This document shows, piece after piece, positions 9,495 to 51,914 of a DNA stretch of 64,000 nucleotides. How positions within the stretch are numbered: the first letter of the stretch is position 1; every line of letters begins with the position of its first letter. The stretch covers positions 28,598 to 92,597 of the forward strand of contig JAUNWT010000001.1 of the NCBI GenBank assembly GCA_030540195.1. The letters are read 5' to 3'. The notes beneath the pieces were generated by a model, which was given only the letters and a program-made list of their open reading frames with translations, had not been told where the DNA came from and ran no database searches. The DNA comes from Bacillota bacterium. GTDB taxonomy: Bacteria > Bacillota_I > Bacilli_A > Erysipelotrichales > Coprobacillaceae. Both the position numbers and the translations under genes were made by a program.

Positions 9495-9560
9495 TATAAC
9501 TGTCAGTTATAGTGAGATGATTTATTGATATTGTACTTTTGTTTTTTTGAAATCTACAAT
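9495..9560 (+). promoter_or_regulatory. Conserved operator+promoter module, copy B
   Basis: TATAACTGTCAGTTATA (9495-9511), 19 nt, TTGTAC (9531-9536), 18 nt, TACAAT (9555-9560). Confidence 0.6.
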
Positions 9561-9583
9561 AAAGATGTAAGGAGGAACAAGAT

Positions 9584-10432: not shown

Positions 10433-10446
10433 AAGGAGAAAGGAAT

Positions 10447-11211: not shown

Positions 11212-11272
11212 CTGACAGTTATACTAACATGCACTATTTATATTGTACATTTATAGAATTTAAAACTAAAAT
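11207..11272 (+). promoter_or_regulatory. Conserved operator+promoter module, copy C
   Basis: TATAACTGACAGTTATA (11207-11223, overlapping the TAA stop of the upstream gene), 19 nt, TTGTAC (11243-11248), 18 nt, TAAAAT (11267-11272). No terminator precedes it. Confidence 0.6.
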
Positions 11273-11298
11273 AAAGATAGAAATTGGAGGAGATAATA

Positions 11299-12139: not shown

Positions 12140-12147
<8 letters not shown>
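11299..12147 (+). CDS. Aldo/keto reductase (AKR paralog 2)
   Basis: ORF track 11284..12147. ATG 11299 preferred (GGAGGAG SD upstream). GYRHIDTAAGYCNE, IDLYLLHQP, QIILRW motifs. Confidence 0.9.
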
Positions 12148-13836
<1,689 letters not shown>

Positions 13837-13970: not shown

Positions 13971-13982
13971 GGAGGGGTGATT

Positions 13983-14822: not shown

Positions 14823-14888
14823 TTGGATGGTGACATTAAGTTGGCCAAACCTTCAAATTTCAATACTTTAGAAAGATGGAGGAAAATT

Positions 14889-21983: not shown

Positions 21984-22002
21984 AAATAAAGAGGGAAGTA
22001 TT

Positions 22003-22932
22003 ATGGAAAAAAAGTTATCAATTATTAACCATAAGAAAGCAAAATCCCTAGTAGAAAAAACAGCCGCGATGATCTTTCGTGGCTGTGCTATTATATCAGT
22101 CCTTGCGGTTATTACCATTACAGGATATATGATTATTTCAGGGACACCTGCTATTTTTAAAGAAGGAATTACAGGTATTTTGTTTTCTACAACATGGAAA
22201 CCAACAGCAGCCCATCCTCAATATGGGATTGCCTATGTTATTTTAACTTCTATCGTAGGGGTTTTTCTAGCAATCTGTATAGGAGTACCTATTGGTTTAT
22301 TTACAGCAATCAACCTTGCTGAAATTGCTCCACCAAAACTTAGAAAAATATTAAAATCAGCAATTGAATTACTTGCAGGGATTCCATCTGTTGTTTATGG
22401 ATTATTAGGAATTCTTATTGTCAATCCAATGATGTATAAATTAGAATTAATGATTTATCATGGTTCTAAAACACATCAATTTACCGGTGGTGCAAACCTT
22501 ATATCTGCAATTATCGTACTAGCAATCATGATTTTACCTACACTTATCAATATTTCAGAAACAGCTTTAAAAGCCGTTCCTGATGATTACCGTAAAAGCT
22601 CATTAGCTCTAGGGGCAAGTAAAATTCAAACAATCTTTAAAGTTGTTGTACCAAGTGCTAAATCAGGTATTATGTCAGCTATTGTACTTGGTGTAGGTCG
22701 TGCTATTGGAGAAGCGATGGCTATTTTGTTAGTAGCCGGAAATGCAGTCTCTCTTCCACTTCCATTTAATTCTGTTCGTTTCTTAACAACAGCCATCGTT
22801 TCAGAAATGGGATATGCCAGTGGTACACATAGACAAGTTTTATTCACAATTGGACTTGTACTGTTTATCTTTATCATGATTATTAACTTAGTCTTAACAT
22901 ATGTTTTAAAAAGAGGTGACTTAGATGAATAA
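22003..22932 (+). CDS. pstC: Phosphate ABC transporter permease
   Basis: 309 aa polytopic membrane protein between pstS and pstA. Permease EAA-type loop (SSLALGASKIQTIFKVVVP). Confidence 0.9.
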   Translation: MEKKLSIINHKKAKSLVEKTAAMIFRGCAIISVLAVITITGYMIISGTPAIFKEGITGILFSTTWKPTAAHPQYGIAYVILTSIVGVFLAICIGVPIGLFTAINLAEIAPPKLRKILKSAIELLAGIPSVVYGLLGILIVNPMMYKLELMIYHGSKTHQFTGGANLISAIIVLAIMILPTLINISETALKAVPDDYRKSSLALGASKIQTIFKVVVPSAKSGIMSAIVLGVGRAIGEAMAILLVAGNAVSLPLPFNSVRFLTTAIVSEMGYASGTHRQVLFTIGLVLFIFIMIINLVLTYVLKRGDLDE

Positions 22933-23791
22933 TACAATCTTAGAAAAAAAGAAACGTGTCAGTGATCAAGTTCTTTATGCACTTATTCAATTAAGTTCAT
23001 TTCTTTCAATCTTTATTTTATTAGTTATTATTGGTTATATCCTCTATCGAGGAATACCAGCCTTTGATTTTTCTTATTTAGTAAATACAACAAGTATCAT
23101 TAATGATACGGTAGGTATATTACCTAATATCGTTAATACTCTTTATATTGTTATTGTGACACTTCTTGTTGCTTGTCCAATAGGAATCGGTGGAGCAATT
23201 TATCTAAATGAATATACAAAAAATAAAAAATTCGTCAGTATCATTTCATTTACAACAGAAGTCTTAGCCGGTATTCCTTCAATTATCTATGGATTATTTG
23301 GGATGCTGTTCTTTGGATCTGTTTGTCATTTAGGATTTTCAATTTTGACAGGTTCACTTACACTTGCCATTATGATTTTACCAATCATTTCAAGAAATAC
23401 TCAAACAGCTCTAGAATGTGTTCCTAAAAGCTATCGTGAAGCTGCATTAGGAATTGGGGCAACAAAATGGTATATGATTCGTACAGTTCTTTTACCAAGT
23501 GCGATTCCTGGAATTTTAACAGGAGTTATTCTAGCAATGGGACGTATCGTTGCTGAATCAGCTGCTTTATTATTTACAGCTGGTTCTGTCGCAATCTTAC
23601 CAACAAGTATTTTTGGTCATTTATTAAGTAGTGGGGGTACTCTTACAATTCAATTATATTTAGAAATGGCTAAAGGAAATTATGAAGTTTCATTTGTGAT
23701 TGCTCTTGTTTTAGTTGTTATTGTTTTAGGATTAAATATGTTAGCTAAATGGATCAGTCGTAAATTTGATGTGAATAAAGGGGATAATTAA
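22925..23791 (+). CDS. pstA: Phosphate ABC transporter permease
   Basis: 288 aa. [20 protein letters not shown] loop. Overlaps the pstC stop. Confidence 0.9.
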
Positions 23792-23792
23792 G

Positions 23793-24548
23793 ATGGAAAA
23801 TAAAATAGAAGCAAGACATCTGAATTTATACTATGGACAAAAACATGCGTTAAAAGATGTCAACTTAGATATTAAAGAAAATAAAATTACAGCATTTATT
23901 GGACCTTCAGGATGTGGTAAATCAACATTTTTAAAAACATTGAATCGTATGAATGATTATGTTGATAATGTTAAAATTGAAGGGGATGTCATCTTAGATG
24001 GTGAAGATATCTATGATAGCCGTGTTGATACAACATTACTTAGAAAAAAAGTCGGAATGGTTTTCCAACAACCAAATCCATTCCCTATGTCAATTTATGA
24101 TAATGTCGCTTATGGACCTCGTATCCATGGAATTAAAAATAAAAAAGAACTTGATAAAATCGTTGAAGATAGTTTAAAAGCAGCTGCACTTTACGACGAA
24201 GTGTCAGATCGTTTGCATTCAAGTGCTTTAGGTTTATCTGGTGGACAACAACAAAGATTATGTATTGCTCGTGCTTTAGCTGTACAACCAGAAGTTATCT
24301 TATTAGATGAACCAACAAGTGCCTTAGATCCAATTTCAACACTTAAAATCGAAGAACTTTTATTACAATTAAAAGATCAATATACAATTGCAATCGTTAC
24401 TCACAATATGCAACAAGCAAGTCGTATTGCTGATTATACAGCCTTCTTCTTAGTTGGAGAAATGGTAGAATATGGACCAACAAAAGATGTCTTTGGTATG
24501 CCAAAAGATAAAAGAACTGAAGATTATATTACTGGTAGATTTGGATAG
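23793..24548 (+). CDS. pstB: Phosphate ABC transporter ATP-binding protein
   Basis: 251 aa. Walker [10 protein letters not shown], signature LSGGQQQRL, Walker B ILLDEP. Confidence 0.95.
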
Positions 24549-24560
24549 GGGGAGATTAAG

Positions 24561-25220
24561 ATGCCAAGAAGTCAATTTGATCAAGAACTTAATAAGATGC
24601 ATGTTGATTTAGATAGAATGTGTCATCTTGTTGTTTTAGCTATTGAAAACTGTGTTACAGCTTTTAAGGAACAAGATTATGAACTTGCTCAAGATATTAT
24701 TCATGGGGATAAACAAATTAATGATGTTGAAAGATCCATTGAAGCAAAATGTTTATCATTGATTTTAAAACAACAACCTGTTGCTTCTGATTTAAGAGAT
24801 GTTTCAACTGCTTTAAAAGTAGTCACTGATTTAGAAAGGATTGGTGATCAAAGTGCAGATATCGCTGAATTAATTTTAGAAATGAAAGAAATGGATACTT
24901 TCTTAATGATTGGACATATTCAAGATATGGCAAAAATTGCAACAAAGATGGTAAAAGAATCTTTAGAAGCATTCCATCAACATGATTTAAAACATGCTTT
25001 AGAAGTTAAGAAGATGGATATTCAAATGGATGAATTATTTGATAAAGTCAAAGAAGATATTATTCAAATGATTAAAGAATCAAATGATAAAGGTGATTTA
25101 ACAATCAATTTCTTAATGATTGCGAAATACTTTGAAAGAATTGGTGATCATGTTGTTAATATTTGTGAATGGATCGAGTTCAACCAAACAGGAAAACTTA
25201 ACAATACACGATTAATTTAG
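24561..25220 (+). CDS. phoU: Phosphate signalling complex protein PhoU
   Basis: 219 aa. Two PhoU repeats with the ERIGD motif twice (LERIGDQSADI, FERIGDHVVNI). Confidence 0.9.
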   Translation: MPRSQFDQELNKMHVDLDRMCHLVVLAIENCVTAFKEQDYELAQDIIHGDKQINDVERSIEAKCLSLILKQQPVASDLRDVSTALKVVTDLERIGDQSADIAELILEMKEMDTFLMIGHIQDMAKIATKMVKESLEAFHQHDLKHALEVKKMDIQMDELFDKVKEDIIQMIKESNDKGDLTINFLMIAKYFERIGDHVVNICEWIEFNQTGKLNNTRLI

Positions 25221-25243
25221 ACCTCTTTTATAGAGGTTTTTTC
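25220..25243 (+). terminator. Rho-independent terminator after phoU
   Basis: ACCTCT-TTTAT-AGAGGT hairpin followed by T6. Confidence 0.6.
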
Positions 25244-25272
25244 TTTTAAGTTCTTTTATTTCTAATCAACTT

Positions 25273-25318
25273 TTAACCTAAACTTAACATAAGTACCCCT
25301 TTCCTATGTTAAGATAAT
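25273..25318 (+). promoter_or_regulatory. Pho boxes and -10 upstream of phoPR
   Basis: TTAACC (25273), N5, TTAACA (25284). The 13-mer TAAACTTAACATA is shared with the pstS promoter. Perfect 9-bp inverted copy CTTAACATA (25283-25291) / TATGTTAAG (25305-25313). GATAAT -10 at 25313-25318. Confidence 0.5.
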
Positions 25319-25336
25319 GTAAAGGATGTGAATAGG

Positions 25337-26017
25337 ATGAAAGAATGTATATATGTTATAGAAGATGATGAAAATATTAGAGAAATTATAGAATTAGCTT
25401 TAACGAGTGCAGGTTATACTGTTAAACAATTTTCTAATGCGTTGGATGCTTTAAAAAGTATGGAAAATGAACAAGTGGATTTAGCGGTTTTTGATTTAAT
25501 GTTACCGGGTATTTCAGGAATTGATGCCATCAAGAAAATTAGAGAAACGGATCAAGAAATGCCAATACTTATTTTAAGCGCTAAAGATCGAGAAATTGAT
25601 AAAGTCAATGGTTTAGATAGTGGTAGTGATGATTATATGACAAAACCTTTTGGGGTTTTAGAATTACAAGCAAGAGTTCGTTCTTTGCTTAGAAGACACA
25701 CACCAAAAACAAAACCAATACTTGAAAGTGATACATTGAAGATTGATAAACAAACAAGAACAGTGATGCGTAATGGACAAGTCATGGAACTTACAAATAA
25801 GGAATATCAATTACTTCTTTATTTAATTGAAAACCATAGTCGAGTAGTAGAAAGAGACGAAATCTTAAATCATATTTGGGGTTATGATTTTATTGGTGAA
25901 TCAAGAGTTTTAGATGTTCATATTCGTGCTTTAAGAGCAAAATTAGATGATGATGGAAATAAATATATTAAGACAATCAGAGGTGTAGGATACCGATTTG
26001 TTGAGGAAGTGAAATAA
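25337..26017 (+). CDS. phoP: OmpR/PhoB-family response regulator
   Basis: ORF track 25328..26017. ATG 25337 preferred (MKECIYVIEDDENIRE). Receiver Asp in AVFDLMLPG. Winged-helix C-terminus IKTIRGVGYRF. Confidence 0.85.
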   Translation: MKECIYVIEDDENIREIIELALTSAGYTVKQFSNALDALKSMENEQVDLAVFDLMLPGISGIDAIKKIRETDQEMPILILSAKDREIDKVNGLDSGSDDYMTKPFGVLELQARVRSLLRRHTPKTKPILESDTLKIDKQTRTVMRNGQVMELTNKEYQLLLYLIENHSRVVERDEILNHIWGYDFIGESRVLDVHIRALRAKLDDDGNKYIKTIRGVGYRFVEEVK

Positions 26018-26018
26018 A

Positions 26019-27710
26019 ATGAATAAAGCGTTATTTAAATATTTTGCGACAGTTTTAATTGTGACACTGTTGTTTTCTTCAAGTGTATCGATGGTTATTT
26101 TATCTGATCAAATGATGCAAACAACAAAAAAAGATATGTTCTATACGGTAAAACTTGTGGAAAACCAAATTGATTATCAAAAACCTTTAGATACTCAAGT
26201 AGATAAACTTAACGATTTAGCTTATACCGAAGATACACGTCTTACAATTATTGATAAAGATGGAAATGTTTTAGCGGATAGTGACAAAGAGGGCATTCAA
26301 GAAAATCATAGTGGGCGTAGTGAATTTAAAGAAGCTTTAAGTGACCAGTTTGGTTATGCGACGCGTTATTCTTCAACGGTTAAAAAGAATTTAATGTATG
26401 TGGCTTATTATCATCGTGGTTATGTTGTTCGTATTGCAATTCCCTATAATGGAATCTTTGATAATATGGGACCTCTTTTAGAACCATTATTTATTAGTGC
26501 AGCTTTATCATTATGTGTTGCTTTAGCTCTTTCTTATCGTTTTTCTAGAACACTTACTAAGCCACTAGAAGAAATTAGTGAAGAAGTTTCTAAAATCAAT
26601 GATAATCGTTATTTAAGTTTTGATCATTATCAATATGAAGAATTTAATGTTATTGCGACAAAGCTTAAAGAACAAGCAGACACAATAAGAAAAACATTAA
26701 AAACTTTGAAAAAAGAAAGCTTAAAAATAAATAGTATCCTCGATAAAATGAATGAAGGATTCATTTTATTAGATACCAATTATGAAATACTTATGGTCAA
26801 TAAAAAAGCAAAACAACTCTTTAGTGATCGAATGGAAGTCAATCAACCTATTCAAGATTTTATCTTTGATCACCAAATTATTGATCAATTAGAAAATATT
26901 GGGGTAGAACCTAAAATCGTTACTCTAAAAAAAGATGAAGAAGTCTATGATTGTCATCTAGCAAAAGTAGAATATGGTGTGACTTTACTTTTTGTCAATG
27001 TCACAGATTCTGTTAATGCTACAAAAATGCGACAAGAATTTTTCTCAAATGTATCTCATGAATTAAAAACACCAATGACATCTATTCGAGGTTATAGTGA
27101 ACTTCTTCAAACAGGAATGATTGATGATCCAAAAGCAAGAAAACAAGCATTGGATAAAATTCAAAAAGAAGTCGATCATATGTCAAATCTTATTGGTGAT
27201 ATCTTAATGATTTCACGTCTTGAAAATAAAGATATTGAAGTTATACAACATCCTGTTCATCTTCAACCAATTGTCGATGATATTTTAGAATCATTAAAAG
27301 TTGAAATTGAAAAGAAAGAAATCACAGTTACCTGTGACTTAACACCACAAACATATCTTTCAAATCATCAACACATCCAACAATTAATGAATAACCTTAT
27401 AAATAATGCAGTAAAATATAATAAACAAAAAGGAAGTTTAAATATTCATTCTTATGTCGTTGATCAAGACTATATTATTGAAGTAAGTGATACCGGTCGA
27501 GGTATTTCACTTATTGATCAAGGTCGTGTTTTTGAACGTTTCTTTAGATGCGATGCAGGACGTGATAAGGAAACAGGTGGTACAGGTCTAGGGCTTGCAA
27601 TCGTAAAACACATTGTTCAATATTATAAAGGAACAATTCATTTAGAAAGTGAATTAGGTAAAGGAACAACCTTTAAGATTGTTTTACCAATAAATAAGGA
27701 CTCGTTGTAG
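26019..27710 (+). CDS. phoR: Phosphate-regulon sensor histidine kinase
   Basis: 563 aa. Two TM segments, PAS-like region, H-box FSNVSHELKTPMTSIRGY, N-box NLINNAVKY, G-box GTGLGLAIVK. Confidence 0.85.
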   Translation: MNKALFKYFATVLIVTLLFSSSVSMVILSDQMMQTTKKDMFYTVKLVENQIDYQKPLDTQVDKLNDLAYTEDTRLTIIDKDGNVLADSDKEGIQENHSGRSEFKEALSDQFGYATRYSSTVKKNLMYVAYYHRGYVVRIAIPYNGIFDNMGPLLEPLFISAALSLCVALALSYRFSRTLTKPLEEISEEVSKINDNRYLSFDHYQYEEFNVIATKLKEQADTIRKTLKTLKKESLKINSILDKMNEGFILLDTNYEILMVNKKAKQLFSDRMEVNQPIQDFIFDHQIIDQLENIGVEPKIVTLKKDEEVYDCHLAKVEYGVTLLFVNVTDSVNATKMRQEFFSNVSHELKTPMTSIRGYSELLQTGMIDDPKARKQALDKIQKEVDHMSNLIGDILMISRLENKDIEVIQHPVHLQPIVDDILESLKVEIEKKEITVTCDLTPQTYLSNHQHIQQLMNNLINNAVKYNKQKGSLNIHSYVVDQDYIIEVSDTGRGISLIDQGRVFERFFRCDAGRDKETGGTGLGLAIVKHIVQYYKGTIHLESELGKGTTFKIVLPINKDSL

Positions 27711-27818: not shown

Positions 27819-27839
27819 AGAGTAAAGGAAGTGATAAAA

Positions 27840-29150
27840 GTGAAAAGAAAAATATTGAATGATTTAATGAAATGGAAAGAGGCTCCTCATAAAAAGCCAC
27901 TTATAATTAAAGGAGCAAGACAAGTTGGAAAAACTTATATTATCCGTGAATTTGCTCAAGAAGCTTATGAGGATTTAGTAGAAATAAATTTTGAAAGAGA
28001 TCTTGAATTTATTGATTTATTTAAAAAGACACATAATCCTAAAGATATCTTACAATATTTAGAAGTTGCTTTTATGGATAAAACATTTGACCGAAATACC
28101 CTCTTTTTTATGAATGAAATACAAGCATGCAGTGATGCTTGGACTTCATTAAAGTTTTTGGCAGAAAGTTTTCCTTGTGATATTATTTGTTCAGGAAGTA
28201 TGTTGGGTGTCGCTATCGCAAATTCGACTTCTTTTCCTGTTGGTTATATTGAAACATGGCAAATGTACCCTTTATCTTTTATGGAATTTATTGAGGCTTT
28301 GGGAATGAAAGAAAATGTTATTCAAAGTTTAAGTGATTGTCTTTTAAATAATCTTCCTGTCATGGAAGTGCTTCATAATAAGATGAATGATTTATTTAAA
28401 GAATACATGGTTGTTGGAGGAATGCCGGAAGTTGTAAATAAATATATTGAAACAAAATCTTTTAAAGAAACACTATTAGTGCAAAGAAGAATTATTAGTG
28501 ATTACTTAAATGATATGGTTAAGTATGCAGATGGTAGTGAAAGAATTAAAGTAAGAGAATGTTATCAATCTATTCCTTTGCAACTTGCTAAAGAAAATAA
28601 AAAATTCCAATATAAACTTGTAAAATCTGGCGGAAATGCACGTTATTTTGATGCTAGTTTAAATTGGCTAAAAGATAGTGGTTTGGTTAATTTAACTTAT
28701 CGTTTAAAGACGATTGATAAACCACTTGAAATTCATAAGGAATCTGCAGTATTTAAAGTTTATATGGCTGATACTGGATTGTTAGTTTCTCAATTTGATG
28801 AAAGTGTTATTAAAGAATTGTTAAATGGTAATTTAGGTGTTTTTAAAGGAGCTTTGTATGAAAATATAGCAGCTCAAATTTTGAGTATGCACGAAAGAGA
28901 ACTTTATTACTTTGAACCAAATACAAGCTCAGAAATAGATTTTATTATTTATTATAAAGGTGAAATATGTCCCCTTGAAATTAAAGCAGGACGAAATACG
29001 GTTTCTAAATCATTCACAAATTTTGTGGATAAATACAATTCCCAATATGCTTTTCGATTATCACAAAAAAATATAGGGACAAACAAAGAAAATGTAAGTT
29101 ATGTTCCTTTATATATGTTAGAAATGTTATTAGATCAAGAAAAAATATGA
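27840..29150 (+). CDS. AAA+ ATPase with C-terminal DUF4143 / PD-(D/E)XK-like domain
   Basis: ORF track 27831..29150. GTG 27840 preferred (9 nt after AAGGAAG). Walker A GARQVGKT, Walker B-like LFFMNEIQ. C-terminal EIDFIIYYKGEICPLEIKAG fits D...ExK. Confidence 0.75.
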   Translation: MKRKILNDLMKWKEAPHKKPLIIKGARQVGKTYIIREFAQEAYEDLVEINFERDLEFIDLFKKTHNPKDILQYLEVAFMDKTFDRNTLFFMNEIQACSDAWTSLKFLAESFPCDIICSGSMLGVAIANSTSFPVGYIETWQMYPLSFMEFIEALGMKENVIQSLSDCLLNNLPVMEVLHNKMNDLFKEYMVVGGMPEVVNKYIETKSFKETLLVQRRIISDYLNDMVKYADGSERIKVRECYQSIPLQLAKENKKFQYKLVKSGGNARYFDASLNWLKDSGLVNLTYRLKTIDKPLEIHKESAVFKVYMADTGLLVSQFDESVIKELLNGNLGVFKGALYENIAAQILSMHERELYYFEPNTSSEIDFIIYYKGEICPLEIKAGRNTVSKSFTNFVDKYNSQYAFRLSQKNIGTNKENVSYVPLYMLEMLLDQEKI

Positions 29151-29166: not shown

Positions 29167-29931
29167 ATGCTTCAACAAGAAAGACATGAACAAATATTGG
29201 CAAGATTAAATACAGAAGGAAAAGTAAAAGTAAAAGAATTGGCGAATGATTTTGAAGTCACAGAAGATTGTATTCGTAAAGATTTAACGGCTTTAGAAAA
29301 AGAAGGTCTTTTAAAACGAATTCATGGGGGAGCCATGCAAATAAGAAAGAATCTCCATGCCTATCACGTTGATGAACGTATGAGTGTACGTTTATCACAA
29401 AAGAAGATCATTGCGAAAAAAGCAGTTGAATTGATTGAAGAAAATACAGTGATTTTTCTAGGAATTTCCACAGTGAATTTAGAACTTGCAAAGTGTATTT
29501 ATCAAAAAAATATAGCTCTTACCATTGTCACAAATATGATTGATATTATGCAATTATTTAGACAAGGAGAACATAAAGTGAATCTTATTTTTATTGGGGG
29601 TCATTTTAACCGAGCTAAAGATGGTTTTATAGGAGCTCTTGCGATTGAACAAATTCATAATTATCGTTTTGATCTTTCTTTTATTGGAACAGTGGGTATA
29701 AATGTTCATGAAGGGAAAGTTACAACATATGATGTTGAAGATGGTCTTACAAAAAAAGAAGTCATGGATGCAAGTAAAAAATGTTATCTTGTGGCAGAGA
29801 GTGAAAAATTTAATTTAGATGGAAATTATGTTTTTGGACATTTAAGTGAATTTACTGGATATATTGGTGAACAAGAGATAACGGGTCATTTTAAAGATAA
29901 GATAGTAGAATACGGATTAGAAATCATTTAA
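29167..29931 (+). CDS. DeoR/GlpR family transcriptional regulator
   Basis: 254 aa. N-terminal DeoR HTH (RHEQILARLNTEGKVKVKELANDFEVTEDCIRKDL) and C-terminal sugar-phosphate-binding DeoR_C domain. Confidence 0.9.
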   Translation: MLQQERHEQILARLNTEGKVKVKELANDFEVTEDCIRKDLTALEKEGLLKRIHGGAMQIRKNLHAYHVDERMSVRLSQKKIIAKKAVELIEENTVIFLGISTVNLELAKCIYQKNIALTIVTNMIDIMQLFRQGEHKVNLIFIGGHFNRAKDGFIGALAIEQIHNYRFDLSFIGTVGINVHEGKVTTYDVEDGLTKKEVMDASKKCYLVAESEKFNLDGNYVFGHLSEFTGYIGEQEITGHFKDKIVEYGLEII

Positions 29932-29946
29932 TGATTTCTTTTTTTT
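29920..29946 (+). terminator. Rho-independent terminator after deoR-family gene
   Basis: GAAATCAT-TTA-ATGATTTC hairpin followed by T8. It overlaps the stop codon. Confidence 0.65.
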
Positions 29947-29951
29947 GTAAA

Positions 29952-29997
29952 AAGTAATAAAACAATTATTGATTATTATTGTTTTATTACTTATAAT
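29952..29997 (+). promoter_or_regulatory. 15-bp perfect inverted repeat overlapping the -10 of the GRE operon promoter (candidate DeoR operator)
   Basis: AAGTAATAAAACAAT (29952-29966), 11 nt, ATTGTTTTATTACTT (29978-29992). TATAAT at 29992-29997. Confidence 0.55.
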
Positions 29998-30036
29998 AAC
30001 CTTGCAATAAGAAAAAACAATAAAAGGAGGCGCGTT

Positions 30037-32370
30037 ATGAATTGTTTATATCAAACAAAAAGAATTTCTGATTTAAAAGAAAAGATGTTAAGTAGTAAAC
30101 GTTATGCTTCTATTGAACAAGCACGAATCATTACATGTGTTTATCAAGAAAATGAAGATCTATCTATTCCTAAAAAAAGAGCTTTATCTTTAAAAGCAGC
30201 TTTAGAAGAATTAGAGATAGCTGTTGAAGATGAAGAATTGATTGTGGGAAATCGTACCAAAGGTGTACGTTATGGTGTTGTTTTTCCTGAAAGTGGATGT
30301 TCTTGGATCAACCAAGAATTTGAAACATTACCAACAAGACCACAAGATCAGTTTTTAGTAAAAGAAGAAGATATCAAAGAATTTAGAGAAAAGATTTATC
30401 CTTATTGGCAAGGAAAATCTTTAGAAGATGCGATTAAAGGAACTTATGGAAAAGAAATTAATGAAATAAGTAAAGTGGTGAAAATCAATCAAAAGGATCA
30501 TGCCCAAGGTCATATTTGTCCAAACAGTGCTTTATGGTTAAAATTAGGTCCACAAGGATTAATTGAAAAGGCAAAAGAGAAGTTAAAGAATTGTCAAGAA
30601 GATCAAAAAGAATTTTATGAATGTACGATTCTTGTCTTAGAAGGGACGATTCATTTTATGCAAAGATATCATGATTTGATTGTTCAAGAAAATCATGAAG
30701 AACTTCAAGAAGTAGGAAAAATTTGTTTCAATCTTTCTAAAAGACCACCAGAAACATTTCATGAGGCTGTGCAATCTCTTTGGTTTTTATTTGTGATATT
30801 ACATATGGAATCGAATGCTTCTTCTTTTTCACCAGGAAGATTAGATCAATATCTTTATCCTTATTATCAAAGAGATATAGAAAATGGCATTTTAGATCAA
30901 CAAAAAGCCTTAGAAATATTAGAATGCTTATGGTTGAAATTCAATCAAATTGTTTATTTAAGAAATCAAAACAGTGCTAAGTATTTTGCGGGATTTCCAA
31001 TAGGATTTAATATTGCGATAGGAGGCGTTGATGAAAAGGGGAATGATACGTACAATGAACTCTCTTTGCTTTGTTTAAAAGCACAAGAACATTTAGGCTT
31101 ACCACAACCGAATCTTTCTGTGAGACTTAATAAAAATACATCTCATGAATTAATGCAAGCCGCAATCAAAGTTGTTTCACTTGGCAGTGGAATGCCACAA
31201 TTTTTCAATGATGAAGCGATTATTCATTCAATGATTGAAGATTTAGATATTGAAGAAAAAGATGCGCGAAATTATGCCATTGTTGGTTGTGTTGAACTAA
31301 CAACGCATGGAAATAATTTAGGATGGTCTGATGCCGCAATGTTTAACTTTAATAAAGTACTCGAATTAACGCTTAATCATGGAAGATGTTTATTAACGAA
31401 TAAACAAATAGGTCTTGATTTAGGAAGCTTAGAAACTTATGAAACATATCAAGACTTAGAAAAGGCTTTTCAAAAACAAATTGATTATTTTATTGATAAA
31501 ATGATGGATGCTGAAAAAGTAGTTGAAAAAGCACATCAAGATTATTTGCCAACCGCTTTTCTATCAACGGTCATCGATGATTGTTTAGAAAAAGGTTTAG
31601 ATGTTACACGTGGTGGCGCTAAATATAATCTATCAGGAATTCAAATGATTCAAGTAGCTAATCTTGCTGATTCTTTAGCGGCAATTAAAGAACTTGTTTA
31701 TCAAGAAAAAATGATTTCTAAACATGAATTATTAGAAGCTCTTAAGGCAGATTTTAAAGGTTATGAGATTATTCAAACCATGCTTTTAAATAAAGTTCCT
31801 AAATATGGAAATGATGTAGCATGGGTCGATGAACTTGGAAGTAAGTGGACAAGTTATTTTAGAGAAAAAATGAAACATTATACAAATTATCGTGGTGGTC
31901 GTTATCATACTGGAATGTATACCGTCTCAGCTCATGTACCAATGGGCGAAAATGTAGGGGCCTCTCCTGATGGTAGAAATGCTTTAAAACCACTGGCTGA
32001 TGGAGGAATGTCACCTGTTTATGGAAGAGATAAACAAGGACCAACGGCGGTTTTAAAATCTGTTTCAAGATTGAATAATTCATGTACAACCAATGGGGGC
32101 TTGCTTAATATGAAATTCTTACCGGAATTCTTTAAAACAGAAACAGGATGCTTGAAATTTGAAAACTTTTTACGTGCTTTTGTGGATTTGAAAGTACCCC
32201 ATATCCAATTTAACGTAGTAAGAAAAGAAGAATTATTAGACGCTAAAGTCCATCCAGAAAACCATCAATCATTAACGATTCGTGTAGCAGGTTATACGGC
32301 TTATTTTGTAGAATTAGCAGGTAAATTACAAGATGAAATCATTGAAAGAACAACCTATGAAAACATCTAA
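30037..32370 (+). CDS. Glycyl radical enzyme, PFL2/glycerol-dehydratase (eliminase) family
   Basis: 777 aa. C-terminal glycyl radical motif TIRVAGYTAYF (Gly752 at 32290-32292). Cys loop VGCVE with a single Cys418 (31288-31290) and Glu420, not the PFL Cys-Cys pair. SD AAAGGAGG. Confidence 0.9.
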   Translation: MNCLYQTKRISDLKEKMLSSKRYASIEQARIITCVYQENEDLSIPKKRALSLKAALEELEIAVEDEELIVGNRTKGVRYGVVFPESGCSWINQEFETLPTRPQDQFLVKEEDIKEFREKIYPYWQGKSLEDAIKGTYGKEINEISKVVKINQKDHAQGHICPNSALWLKLGPQGLIEKAKEKLKNCQEDQKEFYECTILVLEGTIHFMQRYHDLIVQENHEELQEVGKICFNLSKRPPETFHEAVQSLWFLFVILHMESNASSFSPGRLDQYLYPYYQRDIENGILDQQKALEILECLWLKFNQIVYLRNQNSAKYFAGFPIGFNIAIGGVDEKGNDTYNELSLLCLKAQEHLGLPQPNLSVRLNKNTSHELMQAAIKVVSLGSGMPQFFNDEAIIHSMIEDLDIEEKDARNYAIVGCVELTTHGNNLGWSDAAMFNFNKVLELTLNHGRCLLTNKQIGLDLGSLETYETYQDLEKAFQKQIDYFIDKMMDAEKVVEKAHQDYLPTAFLSTVIDDCLEKGLDVTRGGAKYNLSGIQMIQVANLADSLAAIKELVYQEKMISKHELLEALKADFKGYEIIQTMLLNKVPKYGNDVAWVDELGSKWTSYFREKMKHYTNYRGGRYHTGMYTVSAHVPMGENVGASPDGRNALKPLADGGMSPVYGRDKQGPTAVLKSVSRLNNSCTTNGGLLNMKFLPEFFKTETGCLKFENFLRAFVDLKVPHIQFNVVRKEELLDAKVHPENHQSLTIRVAGYTAYFVELAGKLQDEIIERTTYENI

Positions 32371-33262
32371 AGCACTCGTATTTGATATTAAAAGATTTGC
32401 GGTTCATGATGGTCATGGTTTAAGAACGACTGTTTTCTTTAAAGGATGTCCACTTCGTTGTCGTTGGTGTCAAAATCCAGAGGGTTTAGAGAAGAAAAGG
32501 CAAGTACTTTATTTTAAGACAAAATGTATTCATTGTAGGTGTTGCCAACAATTTAATGAGCATATTGATTATCGTGACCGTCCTTATTTTAAAGAAAATC
32601 AAAATGATTTTGAACAAGTCATCAAAGCGTGTCCTAGTGGTGCGATTCAATATGATAGTAAAGAATATGATCTAGATACTTTACTATCTAAAATAAAAGA
32701 AGATGAAGTCTTTTATAAACATGGCGGTGGTGTGACTTTTTCAGGAGGTGAACCTTTTATGCAAGGGGACTTCCTTGTTAAAATCTTAAAAAGATGTAAA
32801 GAAGAAAAGATACATACAGCTATTGAAACCTCTTTTTATACATCTTTGGAACTCATCAAAAAGGTTTTACCTTATTTAGATTTAATTTATATTGATTTAA
32901 AGCTTTTTGATGAAAAAAAACATCAAAGATATACCGGTGTTTCCTCAAAAATCATTAAAGAAAATATACGCTATGTCTTACAAAGTGAACATAAAAAGAA
33001 AGTGATTATCAGAACACCGCTTATTCCACAAATCACAGCTACCGATGAAAATCTTGAAGCAATTGTTCGTTACTTAGTCGCTTGTAATCCAGAGGTAAAA
33101 TATGAACTATTAAACTATAATCCCTTAGCTTCTTCAAAATATGAACTTGTCGGTAAAGAATATGGGATTGATTTAAATTATAAAATGTTTGATGAAAAAC
33201 AAATGCAACATTTTTATGATGTTGTTCTTCAGGAAAATTTAAAAAATTTAATAAGAGAATAA
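32333..33262 (+). CDS. Glycyl-radical enzyme activating protein (radical SAM)
   Basis: 309 aa. CPLRCRWC (CX3CX2C, 32447-32470) plus an extra ferredoxin-like Cys cluster (CIHCRCC...CPSGA). The start is uncertain: ATG 32333 or ATG 32357, and both overlap the GRE 3' end. Confidence 0.9.
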   Translation: MKSLKEQPMKTSKALVFDIKRFAVHDGHGLRTTVFFKGCPLRCRWCQNPEGLEKKRQVLYFKTKCIHCRCCQQFNEHIDYRDRPYFKENQNDFEQVIKACPSGAIQYDSKEYDLDTLLSKIKEDEVFYKHGGGVTFSGGEPFMQGDFLVKILKRCKEEKIHTAIETSFYTSLELIKKVLPYLDLIYIDLKLFDEKKHQRYTGVSSKIIKENIRYVLQSEHKKKVIIRTPLIPQITATDENLEAIVRYLVACNPEVKYELLNYNPLASSKYELVGKEYGIDLNYKMFDEKQMQHFYDVVLQENLKNLIRE

Positions 33263-33278
33263 AAAGGAGAAAAGAAAA

Positions 33279-33959
33279 ATGGAATTTATAATTGATACAG
33301 TAAACTTAGAAGATATTAAAGAAGCAGTAGAATATATGCCAATCGTAGGAGTAACAAGTAATCCTTCAATTGTGAAAAAAACAAGTCCAAAAGACTTCTT
33401 CAAACATATGAAAGAAGTAAGAAAAATCATTGGGAAAGAAAGAAGTCTTCATATTCAAGTCATCTCAAAAGAATGTGATGAAATCGTTAAAGAAGCGCAT
33501 CGTATTCTAGAAGAAATCGATGATCAAGTCTATATTAAAGTACCGGTATCTTATGAAGGAGTTAAAGCTATTAAAAAACTCAAAGCAGAAGGAGTCAATG
33601 TGACAGCAACAGCTGTTTATGATTTAATGCAAGCCTATATGGCCTTAGCTGCTGGAGCAGACTATATTGCCCCTTATGTCAATAGAATAGGGAATCTAGG
33701 AAATGATCCAATGGAACTGATCAATGAACTATCTAATAGAATCGTCCAAGATGGTTATGATTGTAAGATCCTAGCAGCAAGCTTTAAAGGAGTGCAACAA
33801 GTAAGAGATGCTTTCAATTATGGAAGTCAAGCAATCACAGCACCCGTAGAAGTGTTAAAACAAATCTTTGAAAATCCAAGTATTGAAAAAGCCGTGAATG
33901 ATTTCAATAGTGATTGGTATGAAGTTTATGGAGAAGGTAAAGGAATTTGTGATTTATAA
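33279..33959 (+). CDS. Fructose-6-phosphate aldolase / transaldolase subfamily 3B (FSA/TalC-like)
   Basis: 226 aa. MEFIIDTVNLEDIKE...GVTSNPSI N-terminus, Schiff-base Lys region YIKVPVSYEGVKAIKKL, and AAGADYIAPYVNR. Confidence 0.85.
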   Translation: MEFIIDTVNLEDIKEAVEYMPIVGVTSNPSIVKKTSPKDFFKHMKEVRKIIGKERSLHIQVISKECDEIVKEAHRILEEIDDQVYIKVPVSYEGVKAIKKLKAEGVNVTATAVYDLMQAYMALAAGADYIAPYVNRIGNLGNDPMELINELSNRIVQDGYDCKILAASFKGVQQVRDAFNYGSQAITAPVEVLKQIFENPSIEKAVNDFNSDWYEVYGEGKGICDL

Positions 33960-33965
33960 GAATGA

Positions 33966-34010
33966 TTAACTTGTTTGTCCAATTTGGATAAACAAGTTTT
34001 TTTATGCAAA
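33966..34010 (+). repeat. 45-bp terminator repeat, copy 1 (after aldolase gene)
   Basis: TTAACTTGTTTGTCCAATTTGGATAAACAAGTTTTTTTATGCAAA. Hairpin AACTTGTTTGTCC/GGATAAACAAGTT plus T7. Identical at 43 of 45 positions to 40247-40291. Confidence 0.8.
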
Positions 34011-34035
34011 AAAGAGTCAACATTAAGTCGACTCT
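34007..34035 (-). terminator. Rho-independent terminator of the GH1 gene (minus strand)
   Basis: On the minus strand, AGAGTCGAC-TTAAT-GTTGACTCT (one mismatch) followed by T6. Confidence 0.55.
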
Positions 34036-36296
<2,261 letters not shown>

Positions 36297-36473
36297 AATA
36301 ATTCACCTCATTTATTAGCTTTATTATAACTATCCTTTTTTTGTTCTACAATATATGTTGCCCCTCCTTTATACAAAAGGATGATAGCATGTAAGTTTTA
36401 TAAAAACTATGCCTCTTAATTAAATTGACATAAGATTGCATAGAACCTCTTTTTTTGTGAAATTATGTTTTAT

Positions 36474-36505
36474 AAAAAATTCCTATCGTTTGTTAGATAG
36501 GAATT
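36474..36505 (-). terminator. Hairpin terminator after LytTR gene
   Basis: AATTCCTATC (36478-36487) / GATAGGAATT (36496-36505), a 10-bp stem. There is a short T-run on the minus strand. It overlaps the stop codon. Confidence 0.5.
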
Positions 36506-37125
36506 TAAATACTTTCTTTAAAATTTCTACCAATAGGTAAAATAGTAGAATCTTTTAATATAAGTTCTTTTGATTTTATTTCTTTGATAAAGCTTTTATT
36601 TATGACAAATGATTTATGAATTTGAATAAAATTATTAGAATCTATTTCTTTAATAAACGAAGATAAGTTCTTTCTTTCAATGAAATCGCCATTATCATGA
36701 TGAATAATAATTTTGTGATTCATTGATTCTACATACATAATTTGAGCAAGTCTTAATTCAAAAGACATTTGTTTATTTTTATAATGATAGGTTTTAAATC
36801 TTGAAAATATTTGTTGATGAATGGTTTCTGATTTGGAATGAAGACTATTTTCTAAGTTATCATTTTCGAAATATAGATGCACTCCTAGTGTTAAACATTC
36901 ATTAAGTAAATGAAAATCTTTGGGACCAATAATATAAATCAAAGTTTCTGGATATCTATTGATTTGATGAATTTTATCTAGATTATTAAGCGTATCTATT
37001 TCAATAAAATAGAGATCATCATAAGATGCTGGATTGAATTTTTCTAAATAGTAATCTTTTGATGCAAAATATTTTTTTATTATTTCAAAATAATGTTCTT
37101 GTACATCACAGGCTATACGTATCAT
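36505..37125 (-). CDS. LytTR-domain DNA-binding protein with degenerate (pseudo-receiver-like) N-terminal domain
   Basis: 206 aa. C-terminal LytTR domain (IMYVESMNHKIIIHHDNGDFIERKNLSSFIKEIDSNNFIQIHKSFVINKSFIKEI). The N-terminal 100 aa lacks a clear Asp-pocket/Lys signature. No histidine kinase nearby. Confidence 0.8.
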   Translation of the reverse strand: MIRIACDVQEHYFEIIKKYFASKDYYLEKFNPASYDDLYFIEIDTLNNLDKIHQINRYPETLIYIIGPKDFHLLNECLTLGVHLYFENDNLENSLHSKSETIHQQIFSRFKTYHYKNKQMSFELRLAQIMYVESMNHKIIIHHDNGDFIERKNLSSFIKEIDSNNFIQIHKSFVINKSFIKEIKSKELILKDSTILPIGRNFKESI

Positions 37126-37703
37126 TTTCTATCACCTGCGATCTTTTCTAAATAGTAGGCTAAAGGTTCTTTTTTATCTAATTGATCAAGGATATGATAA
37201 TGGTCTTTAAAGACAATCCCTTTTTCTTTTAAAAATACAATTGCATCTATCACTTCTTTTCTTTTCTTTGTGACGATTGGTTGGAAAGAAAATGTAGAAC
37301 CATCCTTCATAACAACATTAAAAATAACATTATAACCATTAGTTCCATAAAAAAGCATAGGAACTGCTTCATAAGTAACTTGAATATACATGATTTTATT
37401 TAGTTTTATTTTCATTTGATAATCTATATTTCTTGTAAAAAGGCTATGATAAAAAGTTTGAGATTTATCTATTACATGCTCATAAAAAGTATATTTAAGA
37501 TAATATTCATCAACCTCCCAAATATTTTTACAAAATGCCATGCTTGGAAGAAAAATAAAAATAACTAATAAAATAAGAAAAATTCCAAAAATATTCATTG
37601 CTGAAAAGGGACTGAAAAATATTAAAAAAATAGCCCAAGTTATAATTAAAGCTGAATAAATAAAACTTGATTTATAGTTAGGTTTTCCTACTTTGTATTT
37701 CAT
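37122..37703 (-). CDS. Membrane protein, two N-terminal TM helices plus a soluble C-terminal domain (bacterial PH-like by architecture)
   Basis: 193 aa. TM1 FIYSALIITWAIFLIFF, TM2 IFGIFLILLVIFIFLPSMAF. 4-nt ATGA overlap with the LytTR gene. SD AAGGAGGG. Confidence 0.6.
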   Translation of the reverse strand: MKYKVGKPNYKSSFIYSALIITWAIFLIFFSPFSAMNIFGIFLILLVIFIFLPSMAFCKNIWEVDEYYLKYTFYEHVIDKSQTFYHSLFTRNIDYQMKIKLNKIMYIQVTYEAVPMLFYGTNGYNVIFNVVMKDGSTFSFQPIVTKKRKEVIDAIVFLKEKGIVFKDHYHILDQLDKKEPLAYYLEKIAGDRK

Positions 37704-37714
37704 GTTATCCCTCC

Positions 37715-37757
37715 TTTAACTGTATTGTATCATAAGTTTTTCGTTTAACGATGTTGT
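37715..37757. repeat. Imperfect direct repeat in the divergent promoter region
   Basis: TTTAACTGTATTGT (37715-37728) and TTTAACGATGTTGT (37744-37757): 11 of 14 identical, 29 bp start-to-start. Confidence 0.3.
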
Positions 37758-37839
37758 TCACGTCATTTTTAGGTTGTTGGTGCCACTTCTATTGTTAGAA
37801 GTTATTGAAGGTTTATGATGAAGTTAGGAGGTGGAAGAT

Positions 37840-39120
37840 ATGAAGGTTTTTTCACTAGCAACATTAACATTAAAAAGGAATAAAAAACAATATATGATCT
37901 ATGGACTCACACTTATTTTTGCAATTGTCATTCATTTGATCTTTTCAGAATTTATCAATAATCCCTATTTAATAGAAGCAGATAGGGCTAGAGGAATAGA
38001 TGATCCTCTTGGAGCGGATATACCTTTATCAATGAGATTACCATTTTTAATTATTTTATTTTGTTGGTTTATGATTATTTATGCGAGTCAATACTTCTTA
38101 AATCAAAAAAATCAAGAATTTGGTATTTTATTTACTTGTGGTTTTAATTTATTAGATTTTATTAAATATACACTTATTCAAATGGGGATTGTGTTTATTT
38201 TTGTTTTACCAATTTCATTTGTTTTAGGTGTTATCAGTTTATTTTTCATTCATTCAAAGATATATCCTTATCTACAAATCAATCATTCAATTTATACTAT
38301 TATGCCAAGTACCTTTTTTACAACGATTTCTGCTTTATGTGTATTAATTATTATTGTGATTATCTTTTTAGTAGGACAACTTCATAAAAGCGATATTTAT
38401 ACTTTGATCAATGATGAAAATAGGGTACAAGCAATCCACTTTGTAAGTTTTAAAAGAATTATGATATATTTAGTTATTTATTTAATAGGATTTTATTCAA
38501 TTATAATAGTTGAAGGAAATTTAATAAATTACATTCCGCCGACAGCTTTAGGCGTTATAGGAATGTATGGATTATATAAATATTTATTACCACAAATCTT
38601 TTTAAAAAATAAAAAGAATTTAAAAGGAAGACAAATATATATCTGTTTATCACATGTGGGATTGATGATTAAGTCAACTGCTTCTTTAATAGGATTACTT
38701 ACGTTACTGATAACAGTTTTATTACCTGTTTTAGCGTCACAAAATATGAAAAGTAATGAATTTGTGACAGGAATGATCAGTTATTTGTTTATTGTATCAA
38801 TGGTAATTATTTCTATTTTATATAAGATGAATATGGGAAAGAAAACAAAGATGAAAGAGTTCACTATTTTAAATAAAGTAGGTTATGTTTATGGTGATTT
38901 AAAAAGAATGCTTTTACAAGAAAATATACTTTATTTTATTTGTGTTTTAGTTATTCCGTTACCTTATTTAATTTTTGTTTCTAGAAAGTTTATTTTAATG
39001 AATTCAATGATGTTAGCTTTCTATAGTGGACTATTTATCTATTATGTAGTGACATTGTTGATTTGTCTTTTGTTAAATTATCATGTAGGGAAAATACAAT
39101 TATTAAAAGGAGGAAAATAA
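37840..39120 (+). CDS. ABC transporter permease (FtsX-like, about 10 TM)
   Basis: ORF track 37831..39120. ATG 37840 preferred (AGGAGGTG SD 6 nt upstream). Highly hydrophobic polytopic protein directly followed by a MacB/LolD-type ATPase. The family call rests on architecture only. Confidence 0.65.
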   Translation: MKVFSLATLTLKRNKKQYMIYGLTLIFAIVIHLIFSEFINNPYLIEADRARGIDDPLGADIPLSMRLPFLIILFCWFMIIYASQYFLNQKNQEFGILFTCGFNLLDFIKYTLIQMGIVFIFVLPISFVLGVISLFFIHSKIYPYLQINHSIYTIMPSTFFTTISALCVLIIIVIIFLVGQLHKSDIYTLINDENRVQAIHFVSFKRIMIYLVIYLIGFYSIIIVEGNLINYIPPTALGVIGMYGLYKYLLPQIFLKNKKNLKGRQIYICLSHVGLMIKSTASLIGLLTLLITVLLPVLASQNMKSNEFVTGMISYLFIVSMVIISILYKMNMGKKTKMKEFTILNKVGYVYGDLKRMLLQENILYFICVLVIPLPYLIFVSRKFILMNSMMLAFYSGLFIYYVVTLLICLLLNYHVGKIQLLKGGK

Positions 39121-39122
39121 CT

Positions 39123-39884
39123 ATGGAAACAGTTTTACAAGCAAAAAATATGACAAAGATTTATGGTATTGGAAGCAAACAACCATTTACAGCTTTAGAA
39201 AATATTGATTTAGAAATCAAAACAGGAGAATTTATTGTTGTTATGGGGGCTTCGGGTTCTGGTAAGTCAACATTAGTGAATAATATTTCAACGATTGATA
39301 TTCCTACTAAGGGTAATTTGTATATTCTCAATCAGGAAGTGAAACAAATGTCTGAAAATCAATTAGGAAAATTCAGATATCAATATTTAGGCTTTGTTTT
39401 TCAAAATTATAATTTATTAAATTCTTTAACGGTTTATGAAAATATTATGATTCCTTTAAAACTTGTAGGAGAAGATAAAAAGGTAATCGATGAAAAAGTA
39501 CATCAAATAACTAAAGAATTAAATATTGAATCATTATTAGATAAATATCCTCATGAATGTTCGGGTGGACAACAACAAAGAGTAGCAATAGCTAGAGCGT
39601 TAATTGGAAATCCTAAAATAATTATTGCAGATGAACCAACAGGAAACTTGGATAGTCAAAACTCACATGAAATATTATCTATTTTTAAAAAGATGAATGA
39701 AAATCATATTACGATTATTATGGTCAGTCATGATCCTTTGATTGCTTCTTATTCTTCAAGATTACTTTATTTAAAAGATGGTAAAATTGAAAAGGAATTA
39801 TTTAAAGGCGATAAGACACAACAAGAGTATTTTAAAGAAATTGTAAGTATTAATTCAAAGGAAATGCAAAAGATGTTGGATTAA
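39123..39884 (+). CDS. ABC transporter ATP-binding protein (MacB/BceA-like)
   Basis: ORF track 39063..39884. ATG 39123 preferred (METVLQAKNMTKIYG, GGAGG SD in AAAGGAGGAAAA). Walker A GASGSGKST, signature CSGGQQQRVAIARAL, Walker B IIADEPTGNLD. Confidence 0.9.
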   Translation: METVLQAKNMTKIYGIGSKQPFTALENIDLEIKTGEFIVVMGASGSGKSTLVNNISTIDIPTKGNLYILNQEVKQMSENQLGKFRYQYLGFVFQNYNLLNSLTVYENIMIPLKLVGEDKKVIDEKVHQITKELNIESLLDKYPHECSGGQQQRVAIARALIGNPKIIIADEPTGNLDSQNSHEILSIFKKMNENHITIIMVSHDPLIASYSSRLLYLKDGKIEKELFKGDKTQQEYFKEIVSINSKEMQKMLD

Positions 39885-39913
39885 GATATAATAAGTAAAA
39901 GGAGATGATTTAT

Positions 39914-40237
39914 ATGGGTTTTAATATTTATATTTTTATCATTGCTATTGTTGTTGTAGGTATTTATCTTTATATTAATAAAAATAAAGAAAAGAAACAT
40001 GAAGAAAAAAGATATGATTTGATTGTTATCTTTAAGGAAGAAAAATATACAGATATTAGAAATAATAATTATCTCAATCAACTAGCAGATTGGAGCTATT
40101 ATTCTAAAAAAGGATTTAGAGGATTTTGTCTTCAAACAAAAGAGGAACTAGAAAGAACAATTATTCGAGAATTGGCTTTAGAAAAAAATGATTTTGAAAT
40201 AATTAATGGGGATCCGGGATTATATGTACCTTCATAG
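39914..40237 (+). CDS. Small hypothetical membrane-anchored protein
   Basis: ORF track 39905..40237. ATG 39914 preferred on SD spacing. One N-terminal TM (IYIFIIAIVVVGIYLYI) and a charged soluble tail. No recognisable domain. Confidence 0.45.
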   Translation: MGFNIYIFIIAIVVVGIYLYINKNKEKKHEEKRYDLIVIFKEEKYTDIRNNNYLNQLADWSYYSKKGFRGFCLQTKEELERTIIRELALEKNDFEIINGDPGLYVPS

Positions 40238-40246
40238 AGAAAAGTT

Positions 40247-40291
40247 TTAACTTGTTTGTTCAATTTGGATAAACAAGTTTTTTTATGAAAA
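40247..40291 (+). repeat. 45-bp terminator repeat, copy 2
   Basis: TTAACTTGTTTGTTCAATTTGGATAAACAAGTTTTTTTATGAAAA. Identical at 43 of 45 positions to 33966-34010, including loop and tail. Confidence 0.8.
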
Positions 40292-51900: not shown

Positions 51901-51914
51901 AGGGGGAAGTAAAG

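Follow-up and report, generated by a model that had tools for sequence, protein, structure and literature searches.

Certain glycyl radical enzymes (GREs) of Escherichia coli open the ring of phosphorylated 1,5-anhydrohexitols, in a route published in 2024 as 'anhydroglycolysis' (PMC13450708, PMC12441222). As recounted in these two reviews, YbiW acts on 1,5-anhydroglucitol-6-phosphate and PflD on 1,5-anhydromannitol-6-phosphate, both giving 1-deoxyfructose-6-phosphate (Ma et al., JACS 2024, via PMC13450708 and PMC12441222), which FsaA and FsaB split into hydroxyacetone and glyceraldehyde-3-phosphate; uptake and phosphorylation of the anhydrohexitols proceed through the phosphotransferase system (PTS). 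The same accounts have a cysteine take the hydrogen from C2 while the C2 hydroxyl loses its proton to the glutamate of a Cys-X-Glu (CXE) loop; C–O cleavage opens the ring and yields an isomer, and the enzymes, which keep the CXE loop, are now classed as GRE isomerases (PMC13450708, PMC12441222). Here, we compare with these systems a locus at positions 29167-33959 of a 64,000-nucleotide stretch of Bacillota DNA (contig JAUNWT010000001.1; hereafter the window) that encodes a DeoR-family regulator, an oxygen-sensitive GRE, a GRE-activating enzyme and an aldolase of the fructose-6-phosphate aldolase (FSA) type. We establish its gene set, catalytic motifs, phylogenetic position and gene linkage, and propose that it is probably a compact anhydroglycolysis module for the breakdown of phosphorylated 1,5-anhydro-sugars, with 1,5-anhydromannitol-6-phosphate as the most likely substrate.

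An earlier reading of the window, made without database searches (the original prediction), had likened the locus to the GRE-activase-FSA linkages of E. coli, and these are seen in the E. coli gene order, where ybiW-ybiY lies beside fsaA, and frwCB-pflDC-frwD lies beside ptsA-fsaB-gldA. It had also named functions for YbiW and PflD; the substrates, the product and the aldolase split agree with the two reviews, and its term 'dehydration' does not, the reaction being an isomerisation.

The four open reading frames (ORFs) of the original prediction are all present, head to tail on the + strand. The DeoR-family gene (29167-29931) is separated by 105 nt from the GRE gene (30037-32370; 777 aa), and this gap contains a promoter-like site, TTGATT-17-TATAAT (29969-29997, + strand), which was the best such site of the region in a promoter scan. 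The activase gene (32333-33262) overlaps the GRE stop with either of its possible starts (32333 or 32357), and the aldolase gene (33279-33959) begins 16 nt past the activase stop. An intrinsic-terminator-like hairpin on the + strand (33968-33998; 14-bp stem, 3-nt loop and T run) stands 9 nt 3′ of the aldolase stop and is likely the end of the operon. Because overlapping or abutting genes are framed by a promoter and a terminator, the layout argues for a single predicted GRE-activase-aldolase transcript. One sequencing run of uncertain type, possibly DNA, with 8% of the query words, gave a 12.7-kb contig of a related strain covering the DeoR gene to the start of the aldolase gene. A plasmid search returned no match to the locus, and the G+C content of the window is ~30%.

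Domain E-values of the four proteins are far beyond chance. The GRE matches the Pfam models PFL-like (PF02901, 2.3e-209) and Gly_radical (PF01228, 6.7e-29), scores 789.6 bits on TIGR01774 (cut-off 678.2), and belongs to the PFL-like division of the glycyl radical superfamily. Motif alignment confirms the radical glycine and the single-Cys-plus-Glu loop that had been picked out originally: Gly752 lies in RVAGY (residues 749-753), and GCVE (residues 417-420) supplies Cys418 and Glu420, with no Cys-Cys pair. By this CXE loop, which is found in 80 of 80 members of the clade described below, the enzyme is of the eliminase/isomerase type, and Cys431 and Glu433 of PflD (named in one of the two reviews) are both conserved in it.

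The activase passes TIGR02494 (294.3 bits, cut-off 174.35) and carries the CX3CX2C motif as CPLRCRWC together with four further cysteines (C-x2-C-x-C(C)...CP), which would suffice for a single auxiliary cluster like that of PflC; it is predicted to be a radical S-adenosylmethionine (SAM) GRE-activating enzyme. The aldolase matches TAL_FSA (2.4e-52) and passes the FSA equivalog NF009299 (299.8 bits, cut-off 214), and its Gln60, Lys87, Thr110 and Tyr133 align with Q59, K85, T109 and Y131 of E. coli FsaA and with the FsaB equivalents, in keeping with a class I aldolase. Archaeal and bacterial transaldolases carry Glu and Phe in place of the FSA Gln and Tyr, and to judge by its residues the window protein is of the FSA type as opposed to a transaldolase, with 1-deoxyfructose-6-phosphate as its predicted substrate. 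The regulator matches HTH_DeoR (1.1e-16) in its N-terminal part and the sensor domain DeoRC (1e-37) in its C-terminal part, and is likely a repressor responsive to sugar phosphates; among NCBIfam models it has sub-threshold matches to GlpR, SrlR and AgaR, with no specific equivalog reached. The DeoR regulator, the radical-SAM activase with extra cysteines and the FSA/TalC-type aldolase had each been named in the original prediction, and all three assignments hold.

Among solved structures, the GRE matches PflD best (8yjo, 639.6 bits; 8id0, 637.7 bits) and glycerol dehydratase third best (1r8w, 563.7 bits), with YbiW at 451.8 bits and pyruvate formate-lyase (PFL) at ~124 bits; identities are 42% to PflD, 38% to glycerol dehydratase and 36% to YbiW. 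A neighbour-joining tree rooted on YbiW joins the clade of the window GRE to PflD as its sister, with 87% of 200 bootstraps in support and alternatives at 10% and 3%. A wider tree, built from 50%-identity representatives drawn from 1.8 billion proteins, unites the window clade and PflD, along with three intermediate representatives, in one superclade apart from the dehydratases. PflD is the nearest characterised enzyme in the phylogenetic placement for which the original prediction had called, and the GRE does not fall with the glycerol and propanediol dehydratases; we regard the grouping with PflD as moderately supported. Several segments are common to PflD and the window clade and absent from glycerol/diol dehydratases and YbiW (NQxDxxQGHI, ESNASS, FAGFPxG and YTVSAHVP), and GxPQxFND and the one-residue insertion ADGGxSP are likewise specific to the superclade relative to the dehydratases and YbiW. 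YbiW has GCIE...GYRC and SISANVP at positions where the window GRE has PflD-like segments. Another solved GRE, PDB 8id1 (792 aa, 'Formate C-acetyltransferase'), was deposited in one series with 8ID0 and 8ID7 and scores 496 bits with the window GRE, 467 with YbiW and 436 with PflD.

Scanning one genome per species and clustering the neighbouring ORFs, we found 80 loci with a GRE 68-97% identical to that of the window, from Erysipelotrichales, Clostridium, Lachnospiraceae, Eubacterium and Megamonas (L numbers below denote such loci). The module is thus spread over at least 80 species-level genomes of gut Firmicutes, in Faecalibacillus, Thomasclavelia, Holdemanella, Anaerostipes, Eubacterium, Clostridium and Megamonas. 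The window GRE protein is 97% identical to that of Faecalibacillus faecis and 92% to that of F. intestinalis, and the module DNA is 92% identical to F. faecis; the host is a gut Faecalibacillus (Erysipelotrichales, Coprobacillaceae), probably of a species distinct from F. faecis. The activase gene lies directly 3′ of the GRE gene in 75 of the 80 loci, a DeoR gene of the same cluster lies at most three genes upstream in 59 of the 77 with upstream sequence, and an FSA gene follows within two genes of the activase in 42 of the 59 with downstream sequence. One or more fructose-family PTS genes (EIIA, EIIC and/or EIIB) are present in 13 of the 80, many of which also encode an enzyme I paralogue and a PRD/EIIA regulator and, in some cases, a Cof phosphatase. 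Two of these PTS components were tested: the EIIC, at 53% identity to E. coli FrwC, exceeds the cut-off of the model on which FrwC scores best (487 vs 426), and the EIIB, at 70% identity to FrwB, exceeds that of the FrwB model (153 vs 135). The frwC and frwB genes of E. coli lie directly before pflD, and we regard this linkage as the strongest independent evidence for a PflD-like role of the Firmicute clade.

Other neighbours recur less often. A Gfo/Idh/MocA oxidoreductase gene is found inside or beside the module in seven loci (L006, L031, L039, L048 and L069, from cluster 28, and L073 and L078, from cluster 141), between the activase and aldolase genes in L006, and a ROK-family protein is encoded near the module in three; these may point to oxidoreduction or phosphorylation of the free sugar, and the Gfo/Idh/MocA enzymes could perform redox at C2 of the anhydro-sugar. 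We considered and rejected the more specific identification of the five-locus Gfo/Idh/MocA gene as a 1,5-anhydrofructose reductase, the match being at family level (67-69 bits) and in the N-terminal half. Genes for Etf/FAD-oxidase, MnmG/RsmG, PFK, chloramphenicol acetyltransferase, a helicase, a ligase and tRNA synthetases were also set aside as pathway genes, as lineage-specific synteny, and the other neighbours are housekeeping genes.

The region upstream of the GRE gene contains a repeated motif. Copies of AACAATAA(AA) are common to distant loci and are often arranged in tandem with an 11-bp period (e.g. L006, L009, L046 and L073); across 77 loci the frequency of the 8-mer AACAATAA per 311 nt is 0.96 in the stretch around the GRE start and 0.052 in the remainder of the loci, a ~18-fold enrichment. 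In the window, a candidate operator region (29957-30025, + strand) holds copies of (A)ACAATAA(AA) that flank and overlap the promoter-like site, at 29957-29966 (one mismatch), 29976-29983 (inverted), 30005-30010 (CAATAA) and 30016-30023, so placed as to flank the -35 box and to sit between the -10 box and the ribosome-binding site. Repressors of the DeoR family typically respond to sugar phosphates. Because conserved repeats at a promoter are combined here with a regulator of this family, the AACAATAA repeats are likely a DeoR operator whose occupancy would occlude the promoter and be relieved by a substrate or product phosphate.

Since the GRE is sister to PflD and related loci carry a FrwC/FrwB-type PTS, 1,5-anhydromannitol-6-phosphate is the most likely substrate. 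The chemistry would follow, by analogy, that shown for the E. coli enzymes, and substrate identity, regulation and uptake in Faecalibacillus are what we infer from the comparison. A 1,5-anhydrohexitol would be taken up and receive a phosphate at C6 from a PTS or kinase whose genes would lie elsewhere in the genome. The activase, with SAM and its [4Fe-4S] cluster, would place a radical on Gly752, from which it would move to Cys418, and Cys418 would abstract the C2 hydrogen of the sugar phosphate. With Glu420 deprotonating the C2 hydroxyl, the ketyl radical would expel the ring oxygen from C1, and the resulting α-keto radical would regain hydrogen from Cys418 to give open-chain 1-deoxyfructose-6-phosphate; the GRE is thus a predicted 1,5-anhydrohexitol-6-phosphate ring-opening C–O lyase. 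The aldolase, through a Schiff base on Lys87, would release hydroxyacetone and pass glyceraldehyde-3-phosphate to glycolysis, and the DeoR protein would repress the operon at the AACAATAA repeats around the promoter until the sugar phosphate builds up. We consider this reading, specific substrate included, to be probable, and are considerably more confident that the class of chemistry is right when the 1,5-anhydromannitol and 1,5-anhydroglucitol versions are taken jointly.

Several observations weigh against it. The GRE falls below the PflD equivalog NF007437 (748.5 bits vs a cut-off of 1109), and E. coli PflD is as near to glycerol dehydratase (42%, 654 bits) as it is to the window GRE (42%, 640 bits). 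After the Cys loop the window clade invariantly reads GCVELTTxGNNLGWSD where PflD reads GCVE(L/T)SIPGRTYGLHD, barrel segments differ (IQMIQ and YHTGM vs VQGIG and FxPGx), and an invariant NRTKGVRYGVVFPESG stands where PflD has NRTVxPRxGIxSPEMD. Residues specific to the clade include Thr422-Thr423, Asn426-Asn427, Trp430-Ser431, Met535-Gln537 and His622-Thr623. Seventeen of the 59 related loci with downstream sequence have no FSA gene after the activase. Genes for a PTS, a kinase and a hydroxyacetone reductase are absent from the operon, as the original prediction had stated for a dedicated transporter and reductase, and the 64-kb window holds no Frw-type PTS, no such kinase and no GldA homologue; a locus of this kind without a PTS is not unusual, because E. 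coli ybiW-ybiY-fsaA also lacks one. The literature searched yielded no expression or biochemical data on the Firmicute clade. Because it fails the PflD equivalog, and because PflD is as near to glycerol dehydratase as to it, the window GRE is no plain PflD orthologue and belongs to a separate sister clade. The parallel drawn in the original prediction therefore stands as to kinship with PflD, but with the qualification that the relation is that of a sister clade at 42% identity, under the PflD cut-off; for this reason the C2 epimer used is something we infer.

The nearest rival keeps the same chemistry and exchanges the epimer: the substrate would be 1,5-anhydroglucitol-6-phosphate, or both C2 epimers would be accepted, with phosphorylation by a general glucose-family PTS or a glucokinase in place of a Frw PTS. 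The FSA linkage is non-discriminating here, since both epimers give one product, and the window module resembles E. coli ybiW-ybiY-fsaA in having no adjoining PTS. The departure from PflD beside the Cys loop also fits, as do the ROK protein of three loci and the Gfo/Idh/MocA enzymes of seven, which could interconvert the epimers via 1,5-anhydrofructose, and of the two polyols 1,5-anhydroglucitol is the commoner in the diet and in the host. We nevertheless consider this version unlikely, as the clade is sister to PflD and just 36% identical to YbiW, keeps the Asp of PflD and glycerol dehydratase (GWSD) where YbiW has GYRC, and is linked, where a PTS is present, to a fructose-family system whose tested components are FrwC and FrwB equivalogs, as at pflD. 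Less likely again is that the GRE acts on another phosphorylated sugar or polyol, as a third specificity within the PflD-like superclade, with a product that FSA also cleaves. PflD is no closer to it, at 42% identity, than to enzymes of other function, it is under the PflD threshold, the clade is very tight (at least 68% identity from Erysipelotrichales to Megamonas) with signature residues of its own, and the aldolase is missing from those 17 loci; yet 1-deoxyfructose-6-phosphate best fits what is established of the stereochemistry and donor range of FSA in E. coli, the FrwC/FrwB-type linkage recurs, and no alternative pathway genes recur beside the module in related loci.

Two further readings depart from sugar-phosphate isomerisation altogether. 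The rank of 1r8w among the structures and the common CXE loop could suggest a B12-independent glycerol or 1,2-propanediol dehydratase, but the dehydratase segments ES(N/S)GHS, GGY/AGY and YP(S/V)S(I/A)N are replaced by ESNASS, AGFP and YTVSAH, the GRE groups with PflD, and FSA and DeoR genes stand in place of propanediol dehydrogenase, aldehyde dehydrogenase and microcompartment genes, none of which lie nearby; we hold this to be very improbable. That the enzyme is a true pyruvate or ketoacid formate-lyase, as the public annotation of relatives as 'formate C-acetyltransferase' would have it, has a negligible probability: the Cys loop has a single Cys followed by Val-Glu, the score on the PFL equivalog TIGR01255 is 157.5 bits against a cut-off of 994.2, and PFL structures match weakly, in keeping with the exclusion of PFL in the original prediction.

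A bolder extension sees in the Firmicute clade a third GRE isomerase with a function of its own, and not simply PflD. It may accept the two C2 epimers alike or some other phosphate of an anhydro- or deoxy-sugar, and would be the main enzyme of anhydro-sugar catabolism in gut Firmicutes; its four genes would form a portable module under DeoR control, dependent on uptake and phosphorylation systems that are not dedicated to it, with hydroxyacetone as a released product. We offer this tentatively, as possible rather than probable. If the assignment of the locus to anhydroglycolysis is true, the turnover of 1,5-anhydroglucitol and 1,5-anhydromannitol in the anaerobic gut may for the most part be the work of this clade and not of the E. 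coli enzymes that have been studied. 1,5-Anhydroglucitol is described as a clinical marker of glycaemia and, for two neutropenias, as the compound from which a toxic metabolite arises (in the account of PMC12441222). The clade-specific residues beside the Cys loop and the conserved candidate operator provide handles on specificity and regulation; apart from the sister-clade and operator points, the locus is explained by published work.

The module is set among genes of other kinds. Immediately upstream is a complete phosphate regulon block, pstS-pstC-pstA-pstB-phoU-phoB-phoR (21150-27710), and synteny of this regulon with the module is also seen in other Faecalibacillus loci. Between phoR and the DeoR gene is an AAA_14/DUF4143 ATPase gene (27831-29150); the ~1.4-kb segment 27774-29155 is not present in F. 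faecis (L047), F. intestinalis (L004) or L003, where the DeoR gene comes directly after phoR. Downstream, a 6.2-kb segment (34005-40247) encodes a GH1 6-phospho-beta-glucosidase, two regulators (RpiR, and LytTR with an unknown partner) and an FtsX-like permease with an ABC ATPase. F. faecis lacks this segment, and its aldolase terminator runs straight into the sequence found at window position 40247. Relative to F. faecis, both flanking segments are strain-specific insertions outside the system. We weighed whether the GH1 6-phospho-beta-glucosidase and RpiR genes, which are on the opposite strand, belong to the system and rejected this, their segment not being in F. faecis and the genes not recurring in other loci.

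Elsewhere in the window are two PTS loci, a LicT-type antiterminator with a beta-glucoside EIIBCA (13977-16772; TIGR01995, 697 bits, cut-off 615) and a LacI-family regulator with a sucrose-type EIIBCA (60379-63371; TIGR01996, 603 bits, cut-off 559); the former is likely the partner of the phospho-beta-glucosidase 17 kb away. A carbonyl/redox group at 6181-13836 comprises a LysR regulator, an FMN reductase, an Fe-alcohol dehydrogenase, aldo-keto reductases and an EFR1-family ferredoxin; within it, the YqhD-like Fe-alcohol dehydrogenase (8323-9468) and four tandem DkgA-like aldo-keto reductases span 8323-13836. The beta-glucoside or sucrose PTS, or the YqhD- and DkgA-like enzymes, could act on the sugar or on hydroxyacetone, and nothing ties them to the operon. 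Also present are a transposase-like gene of the PD-(D/E)XK nuclease family (PDDEXK_2, 44174-45112) and the glycogen synthesis genes glgC, glgD and glgA (50773-54454).

Of the described systems, the Clostridium butyricum glycerol dehydratase (1R8W) and the Roseburia propanediol dehydratase (5I2A) resemble the window GRE in fold, CXE loop, the Asp after the Cys loop and an identity of ~38%, and differ in being net 1,2-eliminases on small diols with other active-site motifs; their gene context has neither an aldolase nor a sugar-phosphate regulator, whereas the window has both. YbiW-YbiY-FsaA (PDB 8ID7, with 1,5-anhydroglucitol-6-phosphate bound, and 8YJN) has the same GRE-activase-FSA linkage, the same lack of an adjoining PTS, and the chemistry and product predicted here, but YbiW is 36% identical, reads GCIE...GYRC and is without the PflD-type motifs, YbiY has a longer ferredoxin-like insert than the window activase, and the YbiV phosphatase gene adjoins the E. 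coli locus, whereas a Cof phosphatase gene adjoins only six related loci. The PflD-PflC system (PDB 8ID0, with 1,5-anhydromannitol-6-phosphate bound, and 8YJO) differs in that its aldolase gene is divergent whereas that of the window lies in the same operon, in the yijO regulator gene adjoining pflD, which has no counterpart in the window, where the regulator is DeoR, and in the Frw PTS and gldA of the E. coli locus, neither of which is in the window. It shares with the window the CXE loop, the NASS, AGFP, YTVSAH and ADGG motifs, a linked FSA aldolase and an activase gene that overlaps the GRE stop. By these comparisons the locus is most likely no new kind of system and would be a member of the known anhydroglycolysis pathway.

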